From NCBI GenBank assembly GCA_963799845.1, contig CAWCYI010000006.1:768001-832000 (forward strand): a DNA stretch of 64,000 nt, given 5' to 3'. This DNA is from an uncultured Nitrososphaerota archaeon. Lineage in GTDB: Archaea; Thermoproteota; Nitrososphaeria; Nitrososphaerales; CADDZS01. Both the position numbers and the translations under genes were made by a program. The notes beneath the pieces were generated by a model. It made no database searches and had not been told where the DNA came from. It worked only from the letters and a program-made list of their open reading frames with translations. Shown piece by piece: positions 31,905 to 56,626 of the stretch (positions are counted from its first letter, which is position 1; each line of letters begins with the position of its first letter).

Positions 31905-33642
31905 CTGAAGAATTCTCCCGTAGCTAAGATCCTACTCGAGCTTGCCGACTATACTGAAGTCGAGGACGACCAGCCATACCGTGCAAGAGCTTACAGGCGA
32001 GCTGCCCAAACCGTAGAATCTTATCCTGATCCGATCGAGAATTTGTGGGAAGAGAAGAAGCTACAGGATCTTCCCGGAATCGGCGAGAACATCGAGAAGA
32101 AGATAGACGAAATCCTGCGAACGGGGAAACTTCAGGCCCTCGAAAAAGCGAAATCTCGCATCCCGGTCGATGTGCCTTCTCTCATAAAGATAGAAGGCGT
32201 CGGTCCGAAAACAGTGAAGCTGCTTTACTCCCAGCTCAAGATAAGGAGCATTGACGACCTGGAGGCTGCGATCAGAGCCGGAAAGCTTCGCGATTTCAAA
32301 GGCCTTGGAGTAAAGTCCGATGAAATCCTGCTTGAGCGGGTGAGCGCGACAAGGCTGCAATCAAACAGGATATTGCTTGCCCAGGCGGTTCCGCTGGCCG
32401 AAAGGGTCGAGAAAACTCTGAAGGAGATTCCAGACGTGAGTCGGATCGCGTTTGCAGGATCATTCCGTCGCATGAAGGAAACCATCGGTGACTTTGACAT
32501 TATTCTTGAGACCGACGAACCTAAGCAAGCCATTGATTTTTTCACCAAGAATGAAGACGAAATCAAAGAGGTCATCTCAGCCGGCGATACGAAGGCGTCC
32601 GTCAAACTACAGAATAACAACTTCCAAGTTGACGTCAGAGTAATCCCTGAAAGATCATGGGGTGCCGCCCTGCTTTACTTCACAGGCTCGAAGACTCACA
32701 ACATCGAGCTCAGAACAATTGCGATAAAGAAGGGGCTTCGTTTGAACGAGTACGGTCTGTTCAAGACTTCGGATGAGACGGTTATGGTAGCCGGAAGAAC
32801 AGAACAGGAGATCTATTCCGTTTTGGGGATGGACTATATTGAACCAGAGCTCAGGGAAAACAGGGGCGAGATCCAGGCTGCGATTTCACACAACCTGCCC
32901 AAGCTCGTAACACTCAAGGAAATTCGAGGCGACCTTCAAATACACACGACTTACAGTGACGGAAGGGAATCGATTGGGGCGATGGCCGACAAGGCGAGAA
33001 GCCTCGGCTACGAGTATATCGCAATTACAGACCACGTTGGTTCTCTCAAAATTGCCAACGCGATGGATGAAGCTGAGAATAAATGAGCAGAAGAAGGAAA
33101 TCGATAAGCTGAACGATTCGTTCGAAAAATCTGGAGACAACTTTCACATCTTTCAAGGAGCCGAAGTCAACATAAAATCTGATGGCAAACTCGACATGCC
33201 TGATTCAGTCCTGAAGCAGATTGAACTAGTACTCGCATCAATTCACGGTGGATTCACTGACAATTCTGAAAAAATCACAATGCGGCTGGTCTCGGCAATG
33301 GAAAATGAAAACGTCGATATTATCGCTCACCCAACGGGACGACTGATCTTCGAACGGAGCGGCTACACATTCGACTTGCGAAAGATCATCGATACAGCCA
33401 AAAACACCGAGACCATTTTGGAAATCGACGCGCACGCCAATCGGCTCGACCTAAATGATGAGAACGCGAGGGAAGCAGTGAAGGCCGGCGTTTTGATGAG
33501 CGTTGACACCGATTCCCACGAATCGTCAGAAATGGACTATATGGCGCTAGGAATTGGACAGGCGAGGAGAGCCTGGGCAAAGAAGGAAGATATTCTCAAC
33601 ACCTCCAGTAGAGACGAGATTGAGAAGTATCTTCAGATCTGA
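31905..33642 (+). CDS. polX: DNA polymerase X with PHP domain; probable CTG start, frameshift at about 33075
   Basis: KN..VA, RAYRRAA, PGIG, GSFRR.KET.GD.D, YFTGSK.HN, LNEYG, ITDH, AHPTGR, DTDSH. Confidence 0.9.
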
Positions 33643-33644
33643 CG

Positions 33645-34124
33645 CTAGTGCATATCTCGAGTTCTTCTAAACTCCACCTTCATGCACCGGTCATACACGA
33701 TCTTAATCCCGACTGCAGCAATTTTCTCTTCTGCTTCCGGGTTATGGATTCCGAGCTGCTCCCAGAACACTTTGGGTTTTTTTTCTATTACATCCTCAAC
33801 GTAGTTAGAAACGTCTTCACTGGGTCTGAATACATCGACAATGTCAACGGAGCCTGGGACGTCTGAAAGCCTCTTGTAGGCCCTCTGCCCCAAGATCTCA
33901 TCAGCGGTCGGATTCACGGGAATCACTTTGAACCCATTCTTGATCAAATATTCAGGAATCTTGTAGGCGTCCTTCTCGGGATTCTTTGACATCCCGATAA
34001 CGGCAACCGTCTTGTTCGTTTTCAAAATGTCCGAAATCTCGTCTTGAGTAGCATTCTGGACCGGCAAATTTTCCACACTTTTCAAGTGCGAGTCCGGGAG
34101 ATTTAATCGTAATGATGAATTCAT
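33645..34124 (-). CDS. CoA-binding (YccU-like) protein
   Basis: AVIG.S.NP.K, PVNP, VDIVDVFR, W.QLG, DRC. Confidence 0.9.
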   Translation of the reverse strand: MNSSLRLNLPDSHLKSVENLPVQNATQDEISDILKTNKTVAVIGMSKNPEKDAYKIPEYLIKNGFKVIPVNPTADEILGQRAYKRLSDVPGSVDIVDVFRPSEDVSNYVEDVIEKKPKVFWEQLGIHNPEAEEKIAAVGIKIVYDRCMKVEFRRTRDMH

Positions 34125-34229
34125 CTGCGTTACCTTTATTTCAGAATTTTTTTAGGTTAATCTTACGTTTCCACCGCTCTAGCAAAGATTAGAAAATAAT
34201 TCCAGCTCCGTTCAATTTGGTGAAGCATT

Positions 34230-34805
34230 ATGAAATACACAGAGAGGATTGTCGGCCCTGATCGAGAAAAAGAGTTCATCGTTCTTTCAAACATGGAAGA
34301 AAAGTACGAGAAAAAAGATGCTTCGTTTTTCAATCAGATCCTGAAGAAGGAACCATCTCTGGTCGTGAGGGTACATGCCGTGACGGTCCTGTCCGAGATC
34401 GGAGACGAGAGTTCCGTTCCGGTACTCGCCGATGTTATGAAGAAAGATCCCAGTCCGCTTATTCGACATGAAGCGGCGTTTTCCCTCGGACAGATGGGAC
34501 TAAAGAGTGCAGTTCCATATCTAATTGACGCTGCTCTAAATGATCCCTCCGAGATTGTAAGGCATGAGTCGGCCGCCGCATTGGGTGCCATCGGGGATGA
34601 AAGAGGGAGGGATGCGCTTGAGAAAGCAAGCAAGGACACCAGCGATGAAGTCCGAGGCTCAGCGATTGCCTCTCTTTTCAATCTGGATTTTGTCAAATAC
34701 TCGAGCTCAAGACAAAAAGTGGATGCCGAAAAATTGGCTGTCGAGATAGAAGAGAAAAGAAAAAGGGCGTCGAAATACCCCAAGAAGAAAATGCCGCATC
34801 CTTGA
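34230..34805 (+). CDS. HEAT-repeat protein with two His-Glu motifs (DOHH half-like)
   Basis: RHEAAFSLGQMG and RHESAAALGAIG repeats. Confidence 0.8.
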   Translation: MKYTERIVGPDREKEFIVLSNMEEKYEKKDASFFNQILKKEPSLVVRVHAVTVLSEIGDESSVPVLADVMKKDPSPLIRHEAAFSLGQMGLKSAVPYLIDAALNDPSEIVRHESAAALGAIGDERGRDALEKASKDTSDEVRGSAIASLFNLDFVKYSSSRQKVDAEKLAVEIEEKRKRASKYPKKKMPHP

Positions 34806-34850
34806 TCGTAAATGGATAATGAAATATAGTGGAGTTCGCCCTAGTAATCT

Positions 34851-34994
34851 ATGGAAAATAGTTCATCGGTTCATCCAGCCGTTTGCAACCGACATAACAT
34901 AAGACTGCGGACTGACGAGCACGGTAAAATGTCCTGTCCAGTTTGTGAACAGATTAGTACCCAGCAGGCTGCTCGGAGAGGCAGACGCCGGTAG
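34851..34994 (+). CDS. 47-aa CxxH-x13-CxxC zinc-finger microprotein with Arg-rich tail (not in ORF track)
   Basis: MENSSSVHPAVCNRHNIRLRTDEHGKMSCPVCEQISTQQAARRGRRR; paralog at 55472; TATA-like AATATAG about 25 nt upstream. Confidence 0.8.
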   Translation: MENSSSVHPAVCNRHNIRLRTDEHGKMSCPVCEQISTQQAARRGRRR

Positions 34995-35065
34995 GTTTTG
35001 CTGAATATCTTCCTCCATAGCCCTTTCGAAATGGAGGATAGACAAGTATTTCGTATCTTATTCGC

Positions 35066-35530
35066 TCAGACCTGTTCGACCATCGAATCAGAGTCTGATT
35101 GTGAATCGCCGGAATCCGATTCTTCCTGTTCTTCAGAACTTTCGTCGCCGGATTCTTCGACAATCTCGCCTCCACCTTCGACCAAGGAGGCGTTTGCAAA
35201 TCTTGCACTAACTCTCTCGATCTTTATCTTGACCTTGGCCTCGGCATCTGCTTTTGCCCCGGGTACGAAAATAACAAATCCAGACACCTTGGCAACGCCC
35301 TCGCCCCTCCGGGAGAGCTCGCCGATCGTAACTGTGTACTCTTTTCCAACTTCCACAGGTGCGTCAGCTGGTGCAAACCGGCTCCCCCCGCTACCGCCGC
35401 CACCTCCGCCGTAAGATGGTCTGTATCCGCCGTAACCGCCGCTTCGTCTGCCGCGTCCATCCCTGCTACCTCCGCTTCCGGAGCTCGTCCGTCGTCCTCG
35501 GTTCTTCCCGCGATTGTCGCTATATCCCAT
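35066..35530 (-). CDS. TRAM-domain RNA-binding protein with Gly/Arg-rich N-terminus and acidic tail
   Basis: PVEVGKEY.V.I...S.RGEGVAKV.GFVIFVPG. Confidence 0.9.
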   Translation of the reverse strand: MGYSDNRGKNRGRRTSSGSGGSRDGRGRRSGGYGGYRPSYGGGGGGSGGSRFAPADAPVEVGKEYTVTIGELSRRGEGVAKVSGFVIFVPGAKADAEAKVKIKIERVSARFANASLVEGGGEIVEESGDESSEEQEESDSGDSQSDSDSMVEQV

Positions 35531-35556
35531 GATACATTCCGTTGCCCTGATAACTT

Positions 35557-37221
35557 CTAGTAGTCCATTCCGCCCATGCCGCCAGGTCCTCCCGGCGGAG
35601 GTCCCGGAGGAGCTTTCATCTTTCCAGAGGCAATCATGTCATCAACACGCAGGATCATCTCGGCGGCTTCCGAGGCGGCCCTAATAATCTGCTCCTTTAC
35701 GGCCGCCGGTTCGATTACATTGTCTCCCCACATGTCTGAGACTTTGCCCGTCCTGACATTGATTCCAAACCACTTTTTGCCCTGACCGTGCTTTGCCCTC
35801 ATGTCAACTTCAGTATCGATTGGGTCCATGCCGGCGTTGTGAGCGAGTGTTTGAGGAATTGACTCGAGCGCGTCTGCAAATTTTGCGACCGCCAGTTGTT
35901 CTCTCCCAGAAAGTTTATTGGACCATTCCCTCAGCTTACCGGCGATCTCCTGCTCTGGAGCTCCCCCACCCGCAACGATGAGTGGTTTTTCCATGACATC
36001 CTTCACGACCATTATTGCATCGTGCATGGATCGCTCGACCTCATCCACGACCCTTTGAGAGCCGCCGCGGATTAGTATGGTAACCGCCTTTGGATTCTTG
36101 GACCCCTCGACGAAGACCCATTTATCCTGCTCCACTTTTCTTTCCTCCACTAGCTGAGCTCGACCAAGGTCCTTTTCAGTCAAATCATCAAGGTTGCTGA
36201 CAATTCTTCCGCCGGTAGCCTTTGCCAACTTTGTCAGATCAGACTCCTTCGCTCTCCTTACTGCCAGGATCTTTTTCTTAGAAAGATAATGCTGTGCGAT
36301 GTCATCTATCCCTTTTTGGCATATGAGGACGTTAGCGCCGGCAGACGCAATCTTGTCAACCATGGCAGAAAGCATCGAATTTTCTTCTTCCAGAAATCTT
36401 TTCATTTGGGATGGATCGTTGATTCTGATCTCAGCGGAGAATTCCGTCTTTTCAATTTCCAAAGGAGAATTCACAAGAGCAATCTTTGCGTCTTCAATTC
36501 TCTTAGGCATCCCGGGATGAACGACTTCCTTGTCTAAAACGATTCCTTTGATCAGCCGTGTATCACTTGTAGATCCCCCAGGTTTTTTCTCGACCTTTAC
36601 ATTATCAATGTCCACTTTGAATTTGCCTTCATCCGTCTTGTCGGCTATTTGGAGCAGGGCAGTTACCACAATCTCGCCAAGCTCAGCGCTGTCATTCGAT
36701 ACAAGCTTTGATTGCATGCTTGTCTCAGCAACTTGTTTGAGGGCAACTTTGTCCCCCGGTTTAACGCTGACTGCAATCTCATTCAGAAATTCGATAGCCT
36801 TGTCCGAGGCCTTGGAGTACCCGTCAACAATAATCGTTGGATGGACTCCCTTGTCGATCAAATCCTCAGCCTGCTCTAAAAGAGCACCAGCAAAGACGAC
36901 TGCAGAAGTAGTGCCATCGCCAACCTCGTTATCGGTAGTTTTCGAAATTTCGATTATCATTTTGGCTGCCGGGTGCTGAACGTCAATCTCTTTTAGAATG
37001 GTCGCGCCGTCGTTGGTTATCGTAACGTCCCCCATGCTGTCAACCAGCATCTTGTCCATACCCCTGGGACCTAAACTGGTCTTTACAATCTCTGCGATCA
37101 ACTTGGCTGCAAAGATGTTGTTTCGCTGGGCGTCATTGCCCTTGGTCTGAGAAGACCCTTCCTTCAGAATGAGAACCTGTTGACCTGTCGAGGTCGTCGC
37201 GGGAATCGCTGTTGCTGACAT
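35557..37221 (-). CDS. Thermosome (group II chaperonin) subunit
   Basis: [25 protein letters not shown] tail. Confidence 0.97.
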
Positions 37222-37408
37222 TTTATTCTATTCTCTGAACTTGACCTTCGGTTGCGCTCATAAGTCTAGCGTTCAGATAGGTTACTGGCTCAACCCGATA
37301 GTATTCTTCGTTCAGCGGGTAATCTCGGCCCCAGGAGGCGAAGACGGATTTAGAGTGTCAAGATGTTGATGCGAGGATTAAATATGCCCCTAGATTATTG
37401 AATTTCAG

Positions 37409-53274: not shown

Positions 53275-54270
53275 TTATACCATTAATCCTGTAACCTTGA
53301 GCGTAAAGTTAATGCTCGTTGTCTTACCGTTGCTCGTTGATGTGCCCACGAAATTCAAGTAAGTAACGATAGGCACGCTTGCTCCGGAAGGCGTCCCACT
53401 TGACATTGCGAATTTCGTGAGAGTTTCACTTCCACCGCAGTATGTGAATGAAACTGGATACGAACTGGCAACGTAATTCGTCACAGTTATCGAGACCGTC
53501 CCAATTGTCACGTCCGACGTTCCAGTGGACTGGAATTGAGAACTGCTGAATACTTGAAGCGATTGAGCATTCTCGATTTCTATAATGAATCCAGAAAATA
53601 GGCCGATTACTTCGTCGTACCCGAATGAAACCGGGATGCTCGTTCCATTTACTTCTATGAACAAGACTGTGCCGTTCGTTGCTATCGTAGCCGTTGTAGT
53701 TTCCGAAATGTTGATCGTCTTGTAGGTCAGGTTAACCACGATCTGCGAAGAACTCGAAGAGACTACGTTGTAAGATGCAGTGTAATTGATGGGAGTCGGG
53801 CCATTAGTCCCATTGTAGATGCCCGAGTAGGATATCGTCATTGCTGAGTAGGACGTAAGCAGAGGTATGAGGTTTGAAAGCTCGTTAGTAGTATTGGAAC
53901 AGGTCACGGTTTCCCCCGTACCAGTGACAGTGTTTGACGAGATTCCTGAGGATGAATTAGTTGTCGTAGATATGGCAGTTGATGTGGAAGTTGAGCTGCT
54001 GATTGTAGTTGAAACAATAGATGGACTCGAACTTGTTGAAGGAGTCGACGAAGTGGTCGTGCTCGAGGCAGACAGAGATGAAGAACCAGCTGAAGTAACC
54101 GAACTAGCCGGACTAGAGGAAGTTGAGGAAGCCGAAGATGAGGAAGTACCAGTTGTAGACGACTTGCTTGAGAGGGCAACATATGCAGTCGCCCCTGCCA
54201 CAGCAATTATCACGATCAAGACGATGGCTATTACCGCCGGTGCAATGGCGCTTCTGGTACGTATTATCAA
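53275..54270 (-). CDS. Secreted/anchored Ser/Thr-rich protein with class III-like signal peptide
   Basis: RTRSA/IAPAVIAIV.. hydrophobic N-terminus, long S/T linker. Confidence 0.75.
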   Translation of the reverse strand: MIIRTRSAIAPAVIAIVLIVIIAVAGATAYVALSSKSSTTGTSSSSASSTSSSPASSVTSAGSSSLSASSTTTSSTPSTSSSPSIVSTTISSSTSTSTAISTTTNSSSGISSNTVTGTGETVTCSNTTNELSNLIPLLTSYSAMTISYSGIYNGTNGPTPINYTASYNVVSSSSSQIVVNLTYKTINISETTTATIATNGTVLFIEVNGTSIPVSFGYDEVIGLFSGFIIEIENAQSLQVFSSSQFQSTGTSDVTIGTVSITVTNYVASSYPVSFTYCGGSETLTKFAMSSGTPSGASVPIVTYLNFVGTSTSNGKTTSINFTLKVTGLMV

Positions 54271-54527: not shown

Positions 54528-54893
54528 TTAGTCAGAATCTAGAACTGGGCGTAGAGTGTTTGCGATCTTAATGATTGCGAGCGCATTAAATCTCAACGTG
54601 TTCGCGCCCAGAGGTGTCAGACCGTATACTTTCTTTCTTTTACGATGTGCACCGTTCGCGTCCTGCGAAATGAATTTCGATCTTTCCAGATTTCTAAGAT
54701 GCGGGTAGAGGGTTCCAAAACTGACCATAATCCCAAACTCTGTTGACAATTCTTTCCTTAGCTCGTATCCCCCCATCGGTCTGGACCAAAGCTGAGAAAG
54801 AAGCAGGATGTCAAGTAGGTCTGCCACTTTGTTTTGGTCACGAGAAGTTGAACCAGGAGTCTGACCCTTCGGATCATCCTGCAGCAGTGTCAA
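54528..54893 (-). CDS. PadR family transcriptional regulator
   Basis: GYEL...L, GTLYP.L..LE, RKKVY.LT..G. Confidence 0.9.
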   Translation of the reverse strand: MTLLQDDPKGQTPGSTSRDQNKVADLLDILLLSQLWSRPMGGYELRKELSTEFGIMVSFGTLYPHLRNLERSKFISQDANGAHRKRKKVYGLTPLGANTLRFNALAIIKIANTLRPVLDSD

Positions 54894-55033: not shown

Positions 55034-55339
55034 CTAGTTTTTAGGCTCGTTCTCGGTCGGACCGACGATGGATGCCAACCCAAATCTGGGGCCCAAACTA
55101 TCTATCCTGATCCTCACCTTGTCTCCGATCTTCGAGCCTCTAACGAACACGATAAATCCTTTGACTTTCGCTAAGCCGTCACCCTTTTTCGAAAGTTCGA
55201 GAATTTCGACACTGTATTCCTTGCCAACTTCAATTGGAGGGGGCGGAGTGAATCCGGGACCGTTGCTATACCTAGAATCGTTGGACCGCGGCCTCCCGCC
55301 GTGCCTTTCTTCGTTTCCTCTACGATCTCGCCGACTCAA
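55034..55339 (-). CDS. TRAM-domain RNA-binding protein (second copy)
   Basis: PIEVGKEY.VEI...SKKGDG.AKV.GFIVFV. Confidence 0.9.
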   Translation of the reverse strand: MSRRDRRGNEERHGGRPRSNDSRYSNGPGFTPPPPIEVGKEYSVEILELSKKGDGLAKVKGFIVFVRGSKIGDKVRIRIDSLGPRFGLASIVGPTENEPKN

Positions 55340-55471
55340 TTTCTCAAAAAAACCTTAGAGCCAGCTTTCCGATTGCCCCTTTAAGTGATTGTCCCGCTTT
55401 TGCGAGGCTGCCGGTACCTGGGCAGTATTTCGAAGGACAATGCCTAATAGCGTGAACGACTGCTTTTATCT

Positions 55472-55621
55472 GTGAGCTCTATCAATTCTTTAGGCCAAGC
55501 CGAGGTTTGCACAAAACACGGCATCAGGTTCCGAGCCGACGAACACGGGAATTTGCGTTGCCCGGTCTGTGAACAGATTTCCCTTCAACAGTCCTTGCGC
55601 AGAGGACGCCGAAGGCGTTAG
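55472..55621 (+). CDS. 49-aa CxxH-x13-CxxC zinc-finger microprotein with Arg-rich tail (not in ORF track)
   Basis: MSSINSLGQAEVCTKHGIRFRADEHGNLRCPVCEQISLQQSLRRGRRRR (GTG start); paralog at 34851. Confidence 0.8.
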   Translation: MSSINSLGQAEVCTKHGIRFRADEHGNLRCPVCEQISLQQSLRRGRRRR

Positions 55622-55660: not shown

Positions 55661-56626
55661 ATGAGCGGTCTGATCAAGATTGCGCAAAGGGATCTTACAC
55701 TTTACGACGGAAACCGCGCCCGCTGCCCAAGATGCGCCAAGGGTCCTATGGTGACCGATTCTTCAGGATCCGAGCTCTTTTGCAGCAACTGCGGGTTCGT
55801 TCTAAAGGATCAGATCGTCGATACCGGACGAGAGTGGAGGGCTTTCTCAAGTGAGGAGGCAAGTCAGCGCGCCCATTCGGGGCCACCCTCCAGCCTTGCT
55901 ATCCATGACATGGGTCTGTCTACCATTATTGGATTTGAGAATAAGGACGCGCACGGCAATTTTCTTCCAACCGCGATGAGGACGACAATTGAAAGGCTAC
56001 GCACTTGGGACGGAAGATCACAAGTACATGCGACCGCAGACAGGAATAGACGCCAAGCGTTCAGCCAGCTCAACCTGCTCGTCGACAAATTGAACGTCAA
56101 TTCACTGGTTGTCGAAAAAGCTGCTTACATTTACAGGCGGGCTCTCGACAGAGGAATGATAAGGGGGAGGTCGATCTCTGGCATGATTGCAGCAGCTCTC
56201 TATGCGGCTTGTCGAGATACGGAAACTCCGCGCACTCTGAAGGACCTTTCGCTGATCAGCAACATCAAGAAAAAGGAGCTCGCACGGTGCTATCGACTGC
56301 TTTTCAACGAACTCGATCTAAGAGTGCCTGTTGCCGACCCGATAAAGTGCATCGCAAGGATCGCAAGCAAAGCGGGAATCCACGAAAAGACAAAACGCAA
56401 GGCACTGGAGATACTCAGGCACACGATCGAAACCAATGATTCTGCTGGCAAGGATCCGATGGGACTCGCGGCTTCAGCTCTGTATATTGCTTGCATTATG
56501 GAGAACGAGAATATTACTCAGAAGGACATCGCCGAAGCTGCAGGTGTTACCGAAGTTACCATAAGGAACAGGTACAAGGGACTCAAAGCTGCGATAATGG
56601 CTGAAAATTCGGCGAAGGCAATTTAG
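55661..56626 (+). CDS. tfb: Transcription initiation factor IIB
   Basis: CxxC..CSNCG zinc ribbon, EWRAF, HD.GLST, GK.P.G.AA, AGVTEVTIRNRYK. Confidence 0.96.
   Translation: MSGLIKIAQRDLTLYDGNRARCPRCAKGPMVTDSSGSELFCSNCGFVLKDQIVDTGREWRAFSSEEASQRAHSGPPSSLAIHDMGLSTIIGFENKDAHGNFLPTAMRTTIERLRTWDGRSQVHATADRNRRQAFSQLNLLVDKLNVNSLVVEKAAYIYRRALDRGMIRGRSISGMIAAALYAACRDTETPRTLKDLSLISNIKKKELARCYRLLFNELDLRVPVADPIKCIARIASKAGIHEKTKRKALEILRHTIETNDSAGKDPMGLAASALYIACIMENENITQKDIAEAAGVTEVTIRNRYKGLKAAIMAENSAKAI

Follow-up and report, generated by a model that had tools for sequence, protein, structure and literature searches.

The stretch of DNA analysed here (the window) comprises 64,000 nucleotides (nt) from an uncultured Nitrososphaerota archaeon (contig CAWCYI010000006.1, positions 768,001 to 832,000; C6:768001-832000 in a 4.6-Mb, 9-contig assembly) and contains two short paralogous genes, here named pepA and pepB, encoding zinc-finger microproteins of about 50 amino acids (aa). 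Judged from their sequences, both are real protein-coding genes, being conserved, under selection and equipped with a promoter motif. The family to which they belong is new, within the known kind of archaeal zinc-finger microproteins, and is restricted to uncultured Nitrososphaeria (Thaumarchaeota). We consider it fairly probable that the family represents a new nucleic-acid-binding microprotein, with RNA as the probable ligand, that is coupled to a paralog of the transcription factor TFB and to a chaperone of the TRAM type. The two genes and their promoter motifs are located as follows.

34851..34994, + strand: pepA, a 47-aa CHCC zinc-finger microprotein with an ATG start, predicted zinc ligands C12, H15, C29 and C32, and an RRGRRR tail
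55472..55621, + strand: pepB, 49 aa, paralogous to pepA, GTG start
34822..34829, + strand: TATA-like box of pepA, AAATATAG, ending 21 nt before the ATG
55443..55450, + strand: TATA-like box of pepB, CCTAATAG, ending 21 nt before the GTG

The microprotein family and its genes

A previous reading based on the sequence only had proposed two paralogous open reading frames (ORFs) at 34851..34994 and 55472..55621, and this was confirmed by their translations and by BLASTP (20/30 identities, E-value 4e-16). Both products fit the motif VCxxH-x13-CPVCEQISxQQxxRRGRRR, and 26 of 37 core residues are identical as read from the ORF translations. The synonymous codon differences cited in that reading (GAG/GAA, GGT/GGG, TGT CCA GTT/TGC CCG GTC, AGT/TCC) are present in the DNA, and the protein-level selection it had claimed was borne out: 88% of the synonymous sites differ between pepA and pepB (pS 0.88, i.e. 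saturated) compared to 29% of the non-synonymous sites (pN 0.29), with 14, 14 and 32 differences at the three codon positions, respectively. Scans of the whole window with Rfam (at gathering thresholds) and for tRNAs gave 0 matches, and thus no known RNA element lies beneath the peptide ORFs. A GTTTTG tract is found directly 3' of the pepA stop codon.

The ratio of non-synonymous to synonymous substitution (dN/dS) was calculated by the Nei-Gojobori method for 18 pairs of family members, of which 12 were unsaturated at synonymous sites. The ratio was 0.10-0.33 in 10 of these 12 pairs, as the sequence-only reading had anticipated, with examples being pepB and pepC, the third copy in this genome (0.128), pepB and the copy at locus L012 (0.129), and the copies at L027 and L029 (0.149); the two exceptions are weighed below. 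Third-position changes predominated in 16 of the 18 pairs.

All 41 intact loci have a start codon 6-16 codons ahead of the first Cys codon, and 38 of them (all except L050, L053 and L058) have a TATA-like pentamer 47-67 nt ahead of that Cys codon, about 22 nt ahead of the start. The background frequency of the pentamer is 0.0032 per nt, corresponding to approximately 6-7% for the 47-67 nt span. Archaeal TATA boxes stand at a set spacing from the transcription start, and a box 21 nt from the start codon thus points to leaderless mRNAs for pepA and pepB. By the same signals, most peptide genes would have a TATA box of their own and their mRNAs are probably leaderless. At L053 (genome G109), one of the loci lacking the box, the peptide gene starts 14 nt past the stop codon of a DEAD-box helicase gene, behind a GAGG sequence. 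In genus g11 (L059-L063), a GC-flanked near-palindrome of the CCC-TTATAA-GGG type encloses the TATA box of the peptide gene and could be an operator or a symmetric promoter.

To describe the protein family, 26 members picked from 45 matches in the fetched loci were aligned. C12, H15, C29, P30, V31 and C32 are invariant, R18, Q38, R42 and R43 are nearly so, and the family consensus reads C-x2-H-x-[IV]-R ... C-P-V-C-x-Q-[ILM]-x2-Q ... RRR-x-RRR. The proteins are approximately 45-50 aa long, the spacer between the ligand pairs comprises 12-14 residues (13 in both pepA and pepB), and in 26/26 members the C-terminal tail contains Arg with almost no Lys. A model generated by AlphaFold2 from the 26-row alignment (mean predicted local distance difference test, pLDDT, 76.8; predicted template modelling score, pTM, 0.45) has short strands within residues 11-28, the hairpin region, and a helix spanning residues 30-43 that begins at C29-P30-V31-C32. 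The order of these elements may correspond to a treble-clef fold, in which the first ligand pair sits on a knuckle or hairpin and the second in the opening turn of a helix.

When pepA and pepB were compared to Pfam-A and NCBIfam, no family scored over its cut-off; the commonest sub-threshold Pfam family among the 26 members was zf-C6H2 (6/26, best E-value 0.025). Seven matches, all unnamed or 'hypothetical' and one originating from a 'Nitrososphaerales archaeon' metagenome-assembled genome (MAG), were obtained when 5.8 billion clustered proteins were searched with the profile, and 13 were obtained from 1.84 billion representatives in a full HMMER scan. None of these 13 was a genuine fusion protein, as the ORFs of P0008, P0009 and P0011 had been called with upstream extensions and that of P0012 is degenerate. 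A search using a 3-row alignment returned two relatives in Nitrososphaerales/Thaumarchaeota archaeon MAGs and one spurious row, the ESM Atlas yielded no lead, its matches being unnamed clusters and a YhfH-like cluster at 0.90-0.91, and a sequence profile search of the PDB returned only CPVC-word matches to RING and B-box proteins. In full-text searches, no publication was found that describes a zinc-finger microprotein associated with TRAM or TFB in Thaumarchaeota. The searchable text of a marine small-protein survey had no passage with 'zinc' or 'TRAM', and its supplementary tables, which lay outside the search, could list a member (PMC12856327). The databases and the literature searched thus agree with the earlier suggestion that this family had not previously been described.

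The nearest known proteins are the one-domain zinc-finger micro-proteins of Haloferax volcanii (C(P)XCG proteins, e.g. HVO_0758), several of which are reported to have stress-related phenotypes (PMC6562870, PMC10716476, PMC11241148). They are likewise archaeal, shorter than 70 aa and built around a single zinc finger. However, the defining feature of the Haloferax proteins is a pair of C(P)XCG motifs, whereas the proteins investigated here have C-x2-H and C-P-V-C-[EA], never with Gly, followed by an Arg-only tail; they also share no sequence match with the Haloferax proteins, belong to another phylum, and are encoded in a conserved TFB/TRAM/HflX neighbourhood. The structure of HVO_0758 (8q5b) was a weak row in the Foldseek search (E-value 8). 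Agreement with the Haloferax group was found in size only, and membership was rejected.

Two further zinc-finger families were considered on structural grounds. In GATA-type fingers (AreA/GATA-1), as in the model of the peptide, a zinc knuckle leads into a hairpin, the second ligand pair opens a helix and a basic tail follows, and GATA/AreA structures were found at Foldseek ranks 5-6 with 42 columns aligned (E-values 2.9-4). GATA fingers are eukaryotic and use four Cys ligands in the arrangement C-x2-C-x17-18-C-x2-C, whereas the peptide has CHCC ligands and a shorter spacer; with this difference in ligand pattern, and with no Pfam GATA match at an E-value of 0.1 or below in the 26 members, membership was rejected. 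The first zinc site of the B-box type 2 domain of TRIM proteins is C-x2-H ... C-x2-C, as in the peptide, and TRIM21 and TRIM5alpha were the top rows (sequence profile E-value 0.0018 for the whole chain; Foldseek E-value 1.3). B-box type 2 domains contain two zinc sites (C-x2-H-x7-C-x7-C-x2-C-x5-H-x2-H), the second zinc being bound via further Cys and His residues that are missing in the peptide. This assignment was likewise rejected, as the matches rest on the CPVC word (E-values 4-11 per stretch) and the peptide has four ligands only, with no conserved Cys or His past C32.

The distribution of the family is patchy. Within the taxonomic family of the source genome, 11 of 13 genomes contained a match to the peptide profile. 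Among 151 sampled genomes from the order, 37 had a match to the peptide and 136 to TRAM; the peptide was frequent in some families (f1, 10/12; f9, 13/24; f19, 4/6), less so in others (f14, 3/15; f11, 3/10), and gave no match in f12 (0/24), f15 (0/23) and f8 (0/11). In a sample of 201 genomes from the class it was found in 7, five of them in f21, a family of another order (5/9 genomes), with 0/114 in f12. Many genomes in the two samples are incomplete, and the tallies take in G007, which is flagged as unpublished. Three copies are decaying and have lost zinc ligands (L070, G005:C171; L071, G009:C213; L072, G004:C64).

Gene neighbourhoods of the peptide genes

In the window, the peptide genes adjoin the following genes.

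35066..35530, - strand: TRAM-A, 154 aa, TRAM domain at residues 58-117 (PF01938, E-value 3.1e-13, 49.8 bits)
55034..55339, - strand: TRAM-B, 101 aa (PF01938, E-value 6.8e-12, 45.5 bits)
55661..56626, + strand: TFB paralog, 39 nt downstream of pepB (PF00382, E-value 1.8e-42; PF08271, E-value 6.7e-11)

Both TRAM-A and TRAM-B score over the PF01938 gathering score of 21 bits and are thus TRAM domain proteins. The convergent arrangement of pepA and TRAM-A, with a gap of 71 nt, and the divergent one of pepB and TRAM-B, with a gap of 132 nt, match what had been noted from the sequence, namely that each copy adjoins a stand-alone TRAM gene in a different orientation. Stand-alone archaeal TRAM proteins (Methanolobus TRAM, Methanococcus TRAM0076 and the NCBIfam family PyTRAM) are reported to act as cold-shock RNA chaperones (PMC5572242, PMC6705878). 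TRAM-A and TRAM-B share the TRAM domain of about 60 residues with these chaperones, but differ from them in having long N-terminal tails rich in RG/RGG and, in TRAM-A, an acidic C-terminal tail that is missing in TRAM-B and in most other TRAM proteins encoded beside a peptide gene. They also score below the NCBI threshold for PyTRAM equivalogs (NF053605, cut-off 85 bits), at 67.5 bits for TRAM-A and 76 bits for TRAM-B, and are thus not PyTRAM equivalogs by that measure.

The genome encodes three peptide copies, six TRAM matches and nine TFB loci. Two of the three copies lie less than 150 bp from a TRAM gene, for which the chance probability is approximately 3e-6. The third copy, pepC, is found on contig C4 directly upstream of a TFB gene, with the nearest TRAM gene 7.8 kb away. 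The pepB and pepC loci share 77.8% identity over 1165 bp, a stretch that begins 40 nt ahead of the peptide start and stops where TFB ends, and beyond which they are unrelated; the limits of the identity show the peptide gene and TFB to be a duplicated cassette, of which one copy now stands beside TRAM-B. A TFB tree of 25 rows, intended as a clade test for the peptide-linked TFBs and leaving out the TFB of pepC (owing to its length) and a partial TFB match at L079, did not resolve at its deep forks.

Three side observations concern the pepC region. The TFB gene beside pepC (L003 510-1455, - strand; G000:C4:1927711-1928647) is split into two overlapping frames, and a DEAD-box helicase gene on the same contig (C4:387281-388493) is split likewise; these may be true frameshifts or assembly indel errors. 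Back to back with pepC lies a 118-aa ORF resembling a single-repeat TBP (L003 1634-1990, + strand; G000:C4:1928826-1929179), and full two-repeat TBP genes are found at C1:101539-102084 and C6:1191816-1192382.

Neighbourhoods were then compared for 44 peptide loci (with flanks of +-8 kb for the 3 from this genome, of up to +-6 kb for 37 others and of +-1.5 kb for 4), with neighbours matched by tblastn and Pfam run on 147 flanking ORFs. A TRAM gene was found within 500 bp at 10 of the 44 loci, compared to 0.085 expected by chance from the TRAM counts and genome sizes in the 151-genome sample, and within 3 kb at 14, compared to 0.38 expected. The enrichment of peptide homologs near TRAM genes, which the sequence-only reading had called for checking, was thus found. 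The ten close pairs are convergent (locus A of the window and L082), divergent (locus B, L065, L066 and L076) or co-directional with TRAM downstream (L073, L074, L075 and L081), and this adjacency in three orientations is spread over six families and two orders. At 9/44 loci, including pepB, a co-directional TFB gene lies no more than 250 bp downstream of the peptide gene, and at 12/44 no more than 1.5 kb. An HflX-type GTPase gene was located within 1 kb at 9/44 loci, and other flanking genes include those for aIF5A and Alba. In genome G080, the order is peptide gene, TFB, HflX, TRAM and DEAD-box helicase, on one strand and within 5 kb.

In the second order, TFB lies directly downstream at 5 of 6 loci, followed by a convergent TRAM gene at 3 of the 6, and at one locus TRAM is divergent. 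For comparison, 24 TRAM loci without the peptide gene were used as a control, 20 of them picked from mostly complete genomes, some of these peptide-bearing, at +-4 kb, and 4 from this genome at +-1.5 kb. TFB was found in the flanks of 0/24 control loci, TBP in 2 and HflX in 1, and thus TFB and TRAM meet only where the peptide gene is. Locus A, where pepA and TRAM-A stand together, may represent a peptide-TFB-TRAM trio after loss of TFB. Among the other flanking ORFs, one of 69 aa at L046 (883-1089, - strand; G004), divergent from the peptide gene, matched Pfam zf_Tbcl_2 ('probable treble clef zinc finger', E-value 1.4e-18).

Proposed role and competing explanations

In the reading that we favour, the peptide would bind zinc at one site formed by Cys-x2-His, a hairpin and then Cys-Pro-Val-Cys at the helix start, and the zinc-stabilised helix together with the Arg tail would constitute a nucleic-acid-binding surface, as suggested by the conserved Gln and Arg residues of the helix and the Arg-only tail. 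The peptide may work alongside TRAM, helicase and HflX in the remodelling of RNA or ribosomes when expression is reset, e.g. under temperature stress. Its gene is a member of a conserved neighbourhood with a TFB paralog directly downstream and an RGG-tailed stand-alone TRAM gene adjoining, with HflX GTPase or DEAD-box helicase as the neighbour instead in other lineages, and locus B is a duplicated cassette of peptide gene and TFB now standing back to back with a TRAM gene. RNA is somewhat favoured over DNA as the ligand, based on the Arg-only tail, the neighbours connected to RNA and ribosomes (TRAM, HflX, DEAD-box helicase, aIF5A and Alba) and the one copy that is operonic with a helicase; the tail resembles arginine-rich RNA-binding motifs. 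That the peptide binds zinc and nucleic acid, that the nucleic acid is RNA and that there is a connection to stress are inferences, as are any role in stress or cold shock and any physical contact with TRAM.

Several findings weigh against this reading. The peptide genes are predicted, with transcription and translation presumed from their sequences, and just 7 and 13 relatives had been called as genes in the libraries of 5.8 and 1.8 billion proteins, respectively. Two very close pairs gave dN/dS values of 0.73 and 0.81, resting on few changes (3-4.5 synonymous and 9-12.5 non-synonymous). Foldseek gave no row with an E-value of 0.001 or below against the PDB, the best being the second B-box of TRIM5alpha, and the best VIA-align score over 48,161 chains was Z 2.9. 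The genomes are kin, and the Poisson figure for TRAM adjacency therefore overstates independence; at 14 of the 44 loci the fetched flanks contain none of TRAM, TFB, HflX and DEAD-box helicase, and genus g3 has genes for enoyl-CoA hydratase and thiolase beside the peptide gene. The decaying copy at L071 still lies 35 nt upstream of an intact TFB gene, and TFB is thus not dependent on the peptide. When 33600-37300 of the window was compared to two peat metatranscriptome runs, identical contigs covered 35053-35267 (the 3' part of TRAM-A) and 35649-35928 (in the thermosome gene described below) and none covered pepA; these are contigs from RNA libraries, which show neither transcription nor its absence. 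Finally, a DNA-binding regulator would be equally compatible with a gene lying ahead of TFB and with a layout resembling that of GATA fingers.

Such a regulator, i.e. a minimal zinc finger controlling adjacent genes (TFB, TRAM, HflX or the thermosome operon) in the manner of Brz or a GATA finger, is the strongest of the alternatives and a real possibility, albeit one we regard as unlikely. At the loci counted above, including most of those in the second order, TFB follows the peptide gene directly and in the same direction, and the two duplicate as a single cassette; the neighbours of the peptide gene vary by lineage and are nevertheless all plausible stress genes, as would be expected for a regulator encoded beside its targets. 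A precedent is the bacteriorhodopsin regulator Brz of Halobacterium salinarum, a small zinc-finger protein reported to be encoded directly upstream of, and in the same orientation as, the bop gene that it controls (PMC2253796). The likeness of pepB and pepC to Brz is one of gene position, both lying upstream of TFB. In contrast to Brz, the downstream gene here is a paralog of a general transcription factor, and many copies have no such gene. Although GATA/AreA fingers are among the top Foldseek rows, their E-values are not significant. A tail of Arg only, as opposed to mixed Lys and Arg, the copy operonic with the DEAD-box RNA helicase, and neighbours such as HflX, aIF5A and Alba that point to RNA and the ribosome also argue against DNA as the target.

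The sequence-only reading had instead proposed a two-gene system, taken here to mean a dedicated pair in which the microprotein would contact the neighbouring TRAM protein directly as a partner or co-chaperone. The excess of close TRAM genes, in three orientations and several families, is consistent with such a pairing, and the acidic C-terminal tail of TRAM-A could attract the Arg tail of the peptide. However, that tail is lacking in TRAM-B and most adjacent TRAM proteins, TRAM is present in far more genomes of the order sample than the peptide (136/151 and 37/151, respectively), 30 of the 44 loci have no TRAM gene within 3 kb, only two of the six TRAM genes in this genome adjoin a peptide copy and pepC has none within 7 kb, and the varied orientations exclude a common operon. 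A complex prediction for pepA and the TRAM-A domain (residues 50-125), both supplied as alignments, scored 0.00, which is evidence neither way. A system dedicated to the two genes was not borne out, given that TFB is directly downstream and HflX nearby at 9/44 loci each, 14/44 loci have none of the named neighbours, and the cassette of peptide gene and TFB was duplicated without TRAM. We therefore regard a partnership of this kind as quite doubtful.

A more elaborate version of the favoured reading, which we consider similarly doubtful, is that the peptide is the third component of a peptide-TFB-TRAM expression switch in non-model Thaumarchaea. Its zinc finger and Arg tail would act as an adaptor that binds the nascent 5' ends of transcripts started by the partner TFB and passes them to the RGG-tailed TRAM protein, or to the helicase or HflX. 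If so, the choice of an alternative initiation factor would be physically coupled to post-transcriptional RNA fate.

Still less probable is that the peptide acts at RNA polymerase as a cofactor or competitor of TFB, e.g. as a free-standing mimic of its N-terminal zinc ribbon. The gene lies immediately upstream of TFB paralogs, and pepA has a weak Pfam match to the TFIIB zinc ribbon (PF08271, E-value 0.069), but this match reached 13.2 bits compared to the 29 needed and was found in just 1/26 members, and a profile-profile comparison to TFB N-termini by hhalign gave a probability of 14%. Descent of the peptide from the TFB zinc ribbon is not borne out by these scores and was rejected. Furthermore, the second ligand pair is placed at the helix start in the model and not in a ribbon, and many copies have no TFB nearby. 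Lastly, it is highly improbable that the ORFs are non-functional chance frames, or upstream ORFs for which translating matters and the product does not: they are tiny and mostly missed by gene callers, but the family shows invariant zinc ligands, a dN/dS of about 0.1-0.3 with saturation at synonymous sites, and conservation across two orders, and in many copies no gene follows on the same strand.

Archaeal zinc-finger microproteins are mostly known from haloarchaea and are usually missed by gene callers, and the annotation of the genomes studied here omits a conserved gene. The family adds an unannotated zinc-finger microprotein with selection, a promoter of its own and an informative neighbourhood. 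If the coupling of the favoured reading is functional, it would offer a handle on the purpose of the many TFB paralogs in Thaumarchaea and on the recruitment of stand-alone TRAM chaperones.

Flanking genes of the TRAM loci

Beyond TRAM-A, on the side away from pepA, a chaperonin gene is encoded.

35557..37221, - strand: thermosome subunit gene, 26 nt upstream of TRAM-A (ortholog at L082 matching PF00118, E-value 6e-96)

With both genes on the same strand and only 26 nt between them, the thermosome gene and TRAM-A probably share a transcript and form one transcription unit. The order of thermosome and TRAM genes is also kept in G002 (L082). Beyond TRAM-B, away from pepB, the - strand encodes a PadR-family regulator (54528-54893, E-value 9e-13) and a 331-aa protein that is very rich in Ser/Thr and has an N-terminal hydrophobic segment (53275-54270). 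Elsewhere in the same genome (L005; G000:C6:1190619-1192382), another stand-alone TRAM gene is found approximately 1 kb upstream of a TBP gene; such a TRAM-TBP pair is also present at L101, giving a total of 2 among the 24 control TRAM loci.

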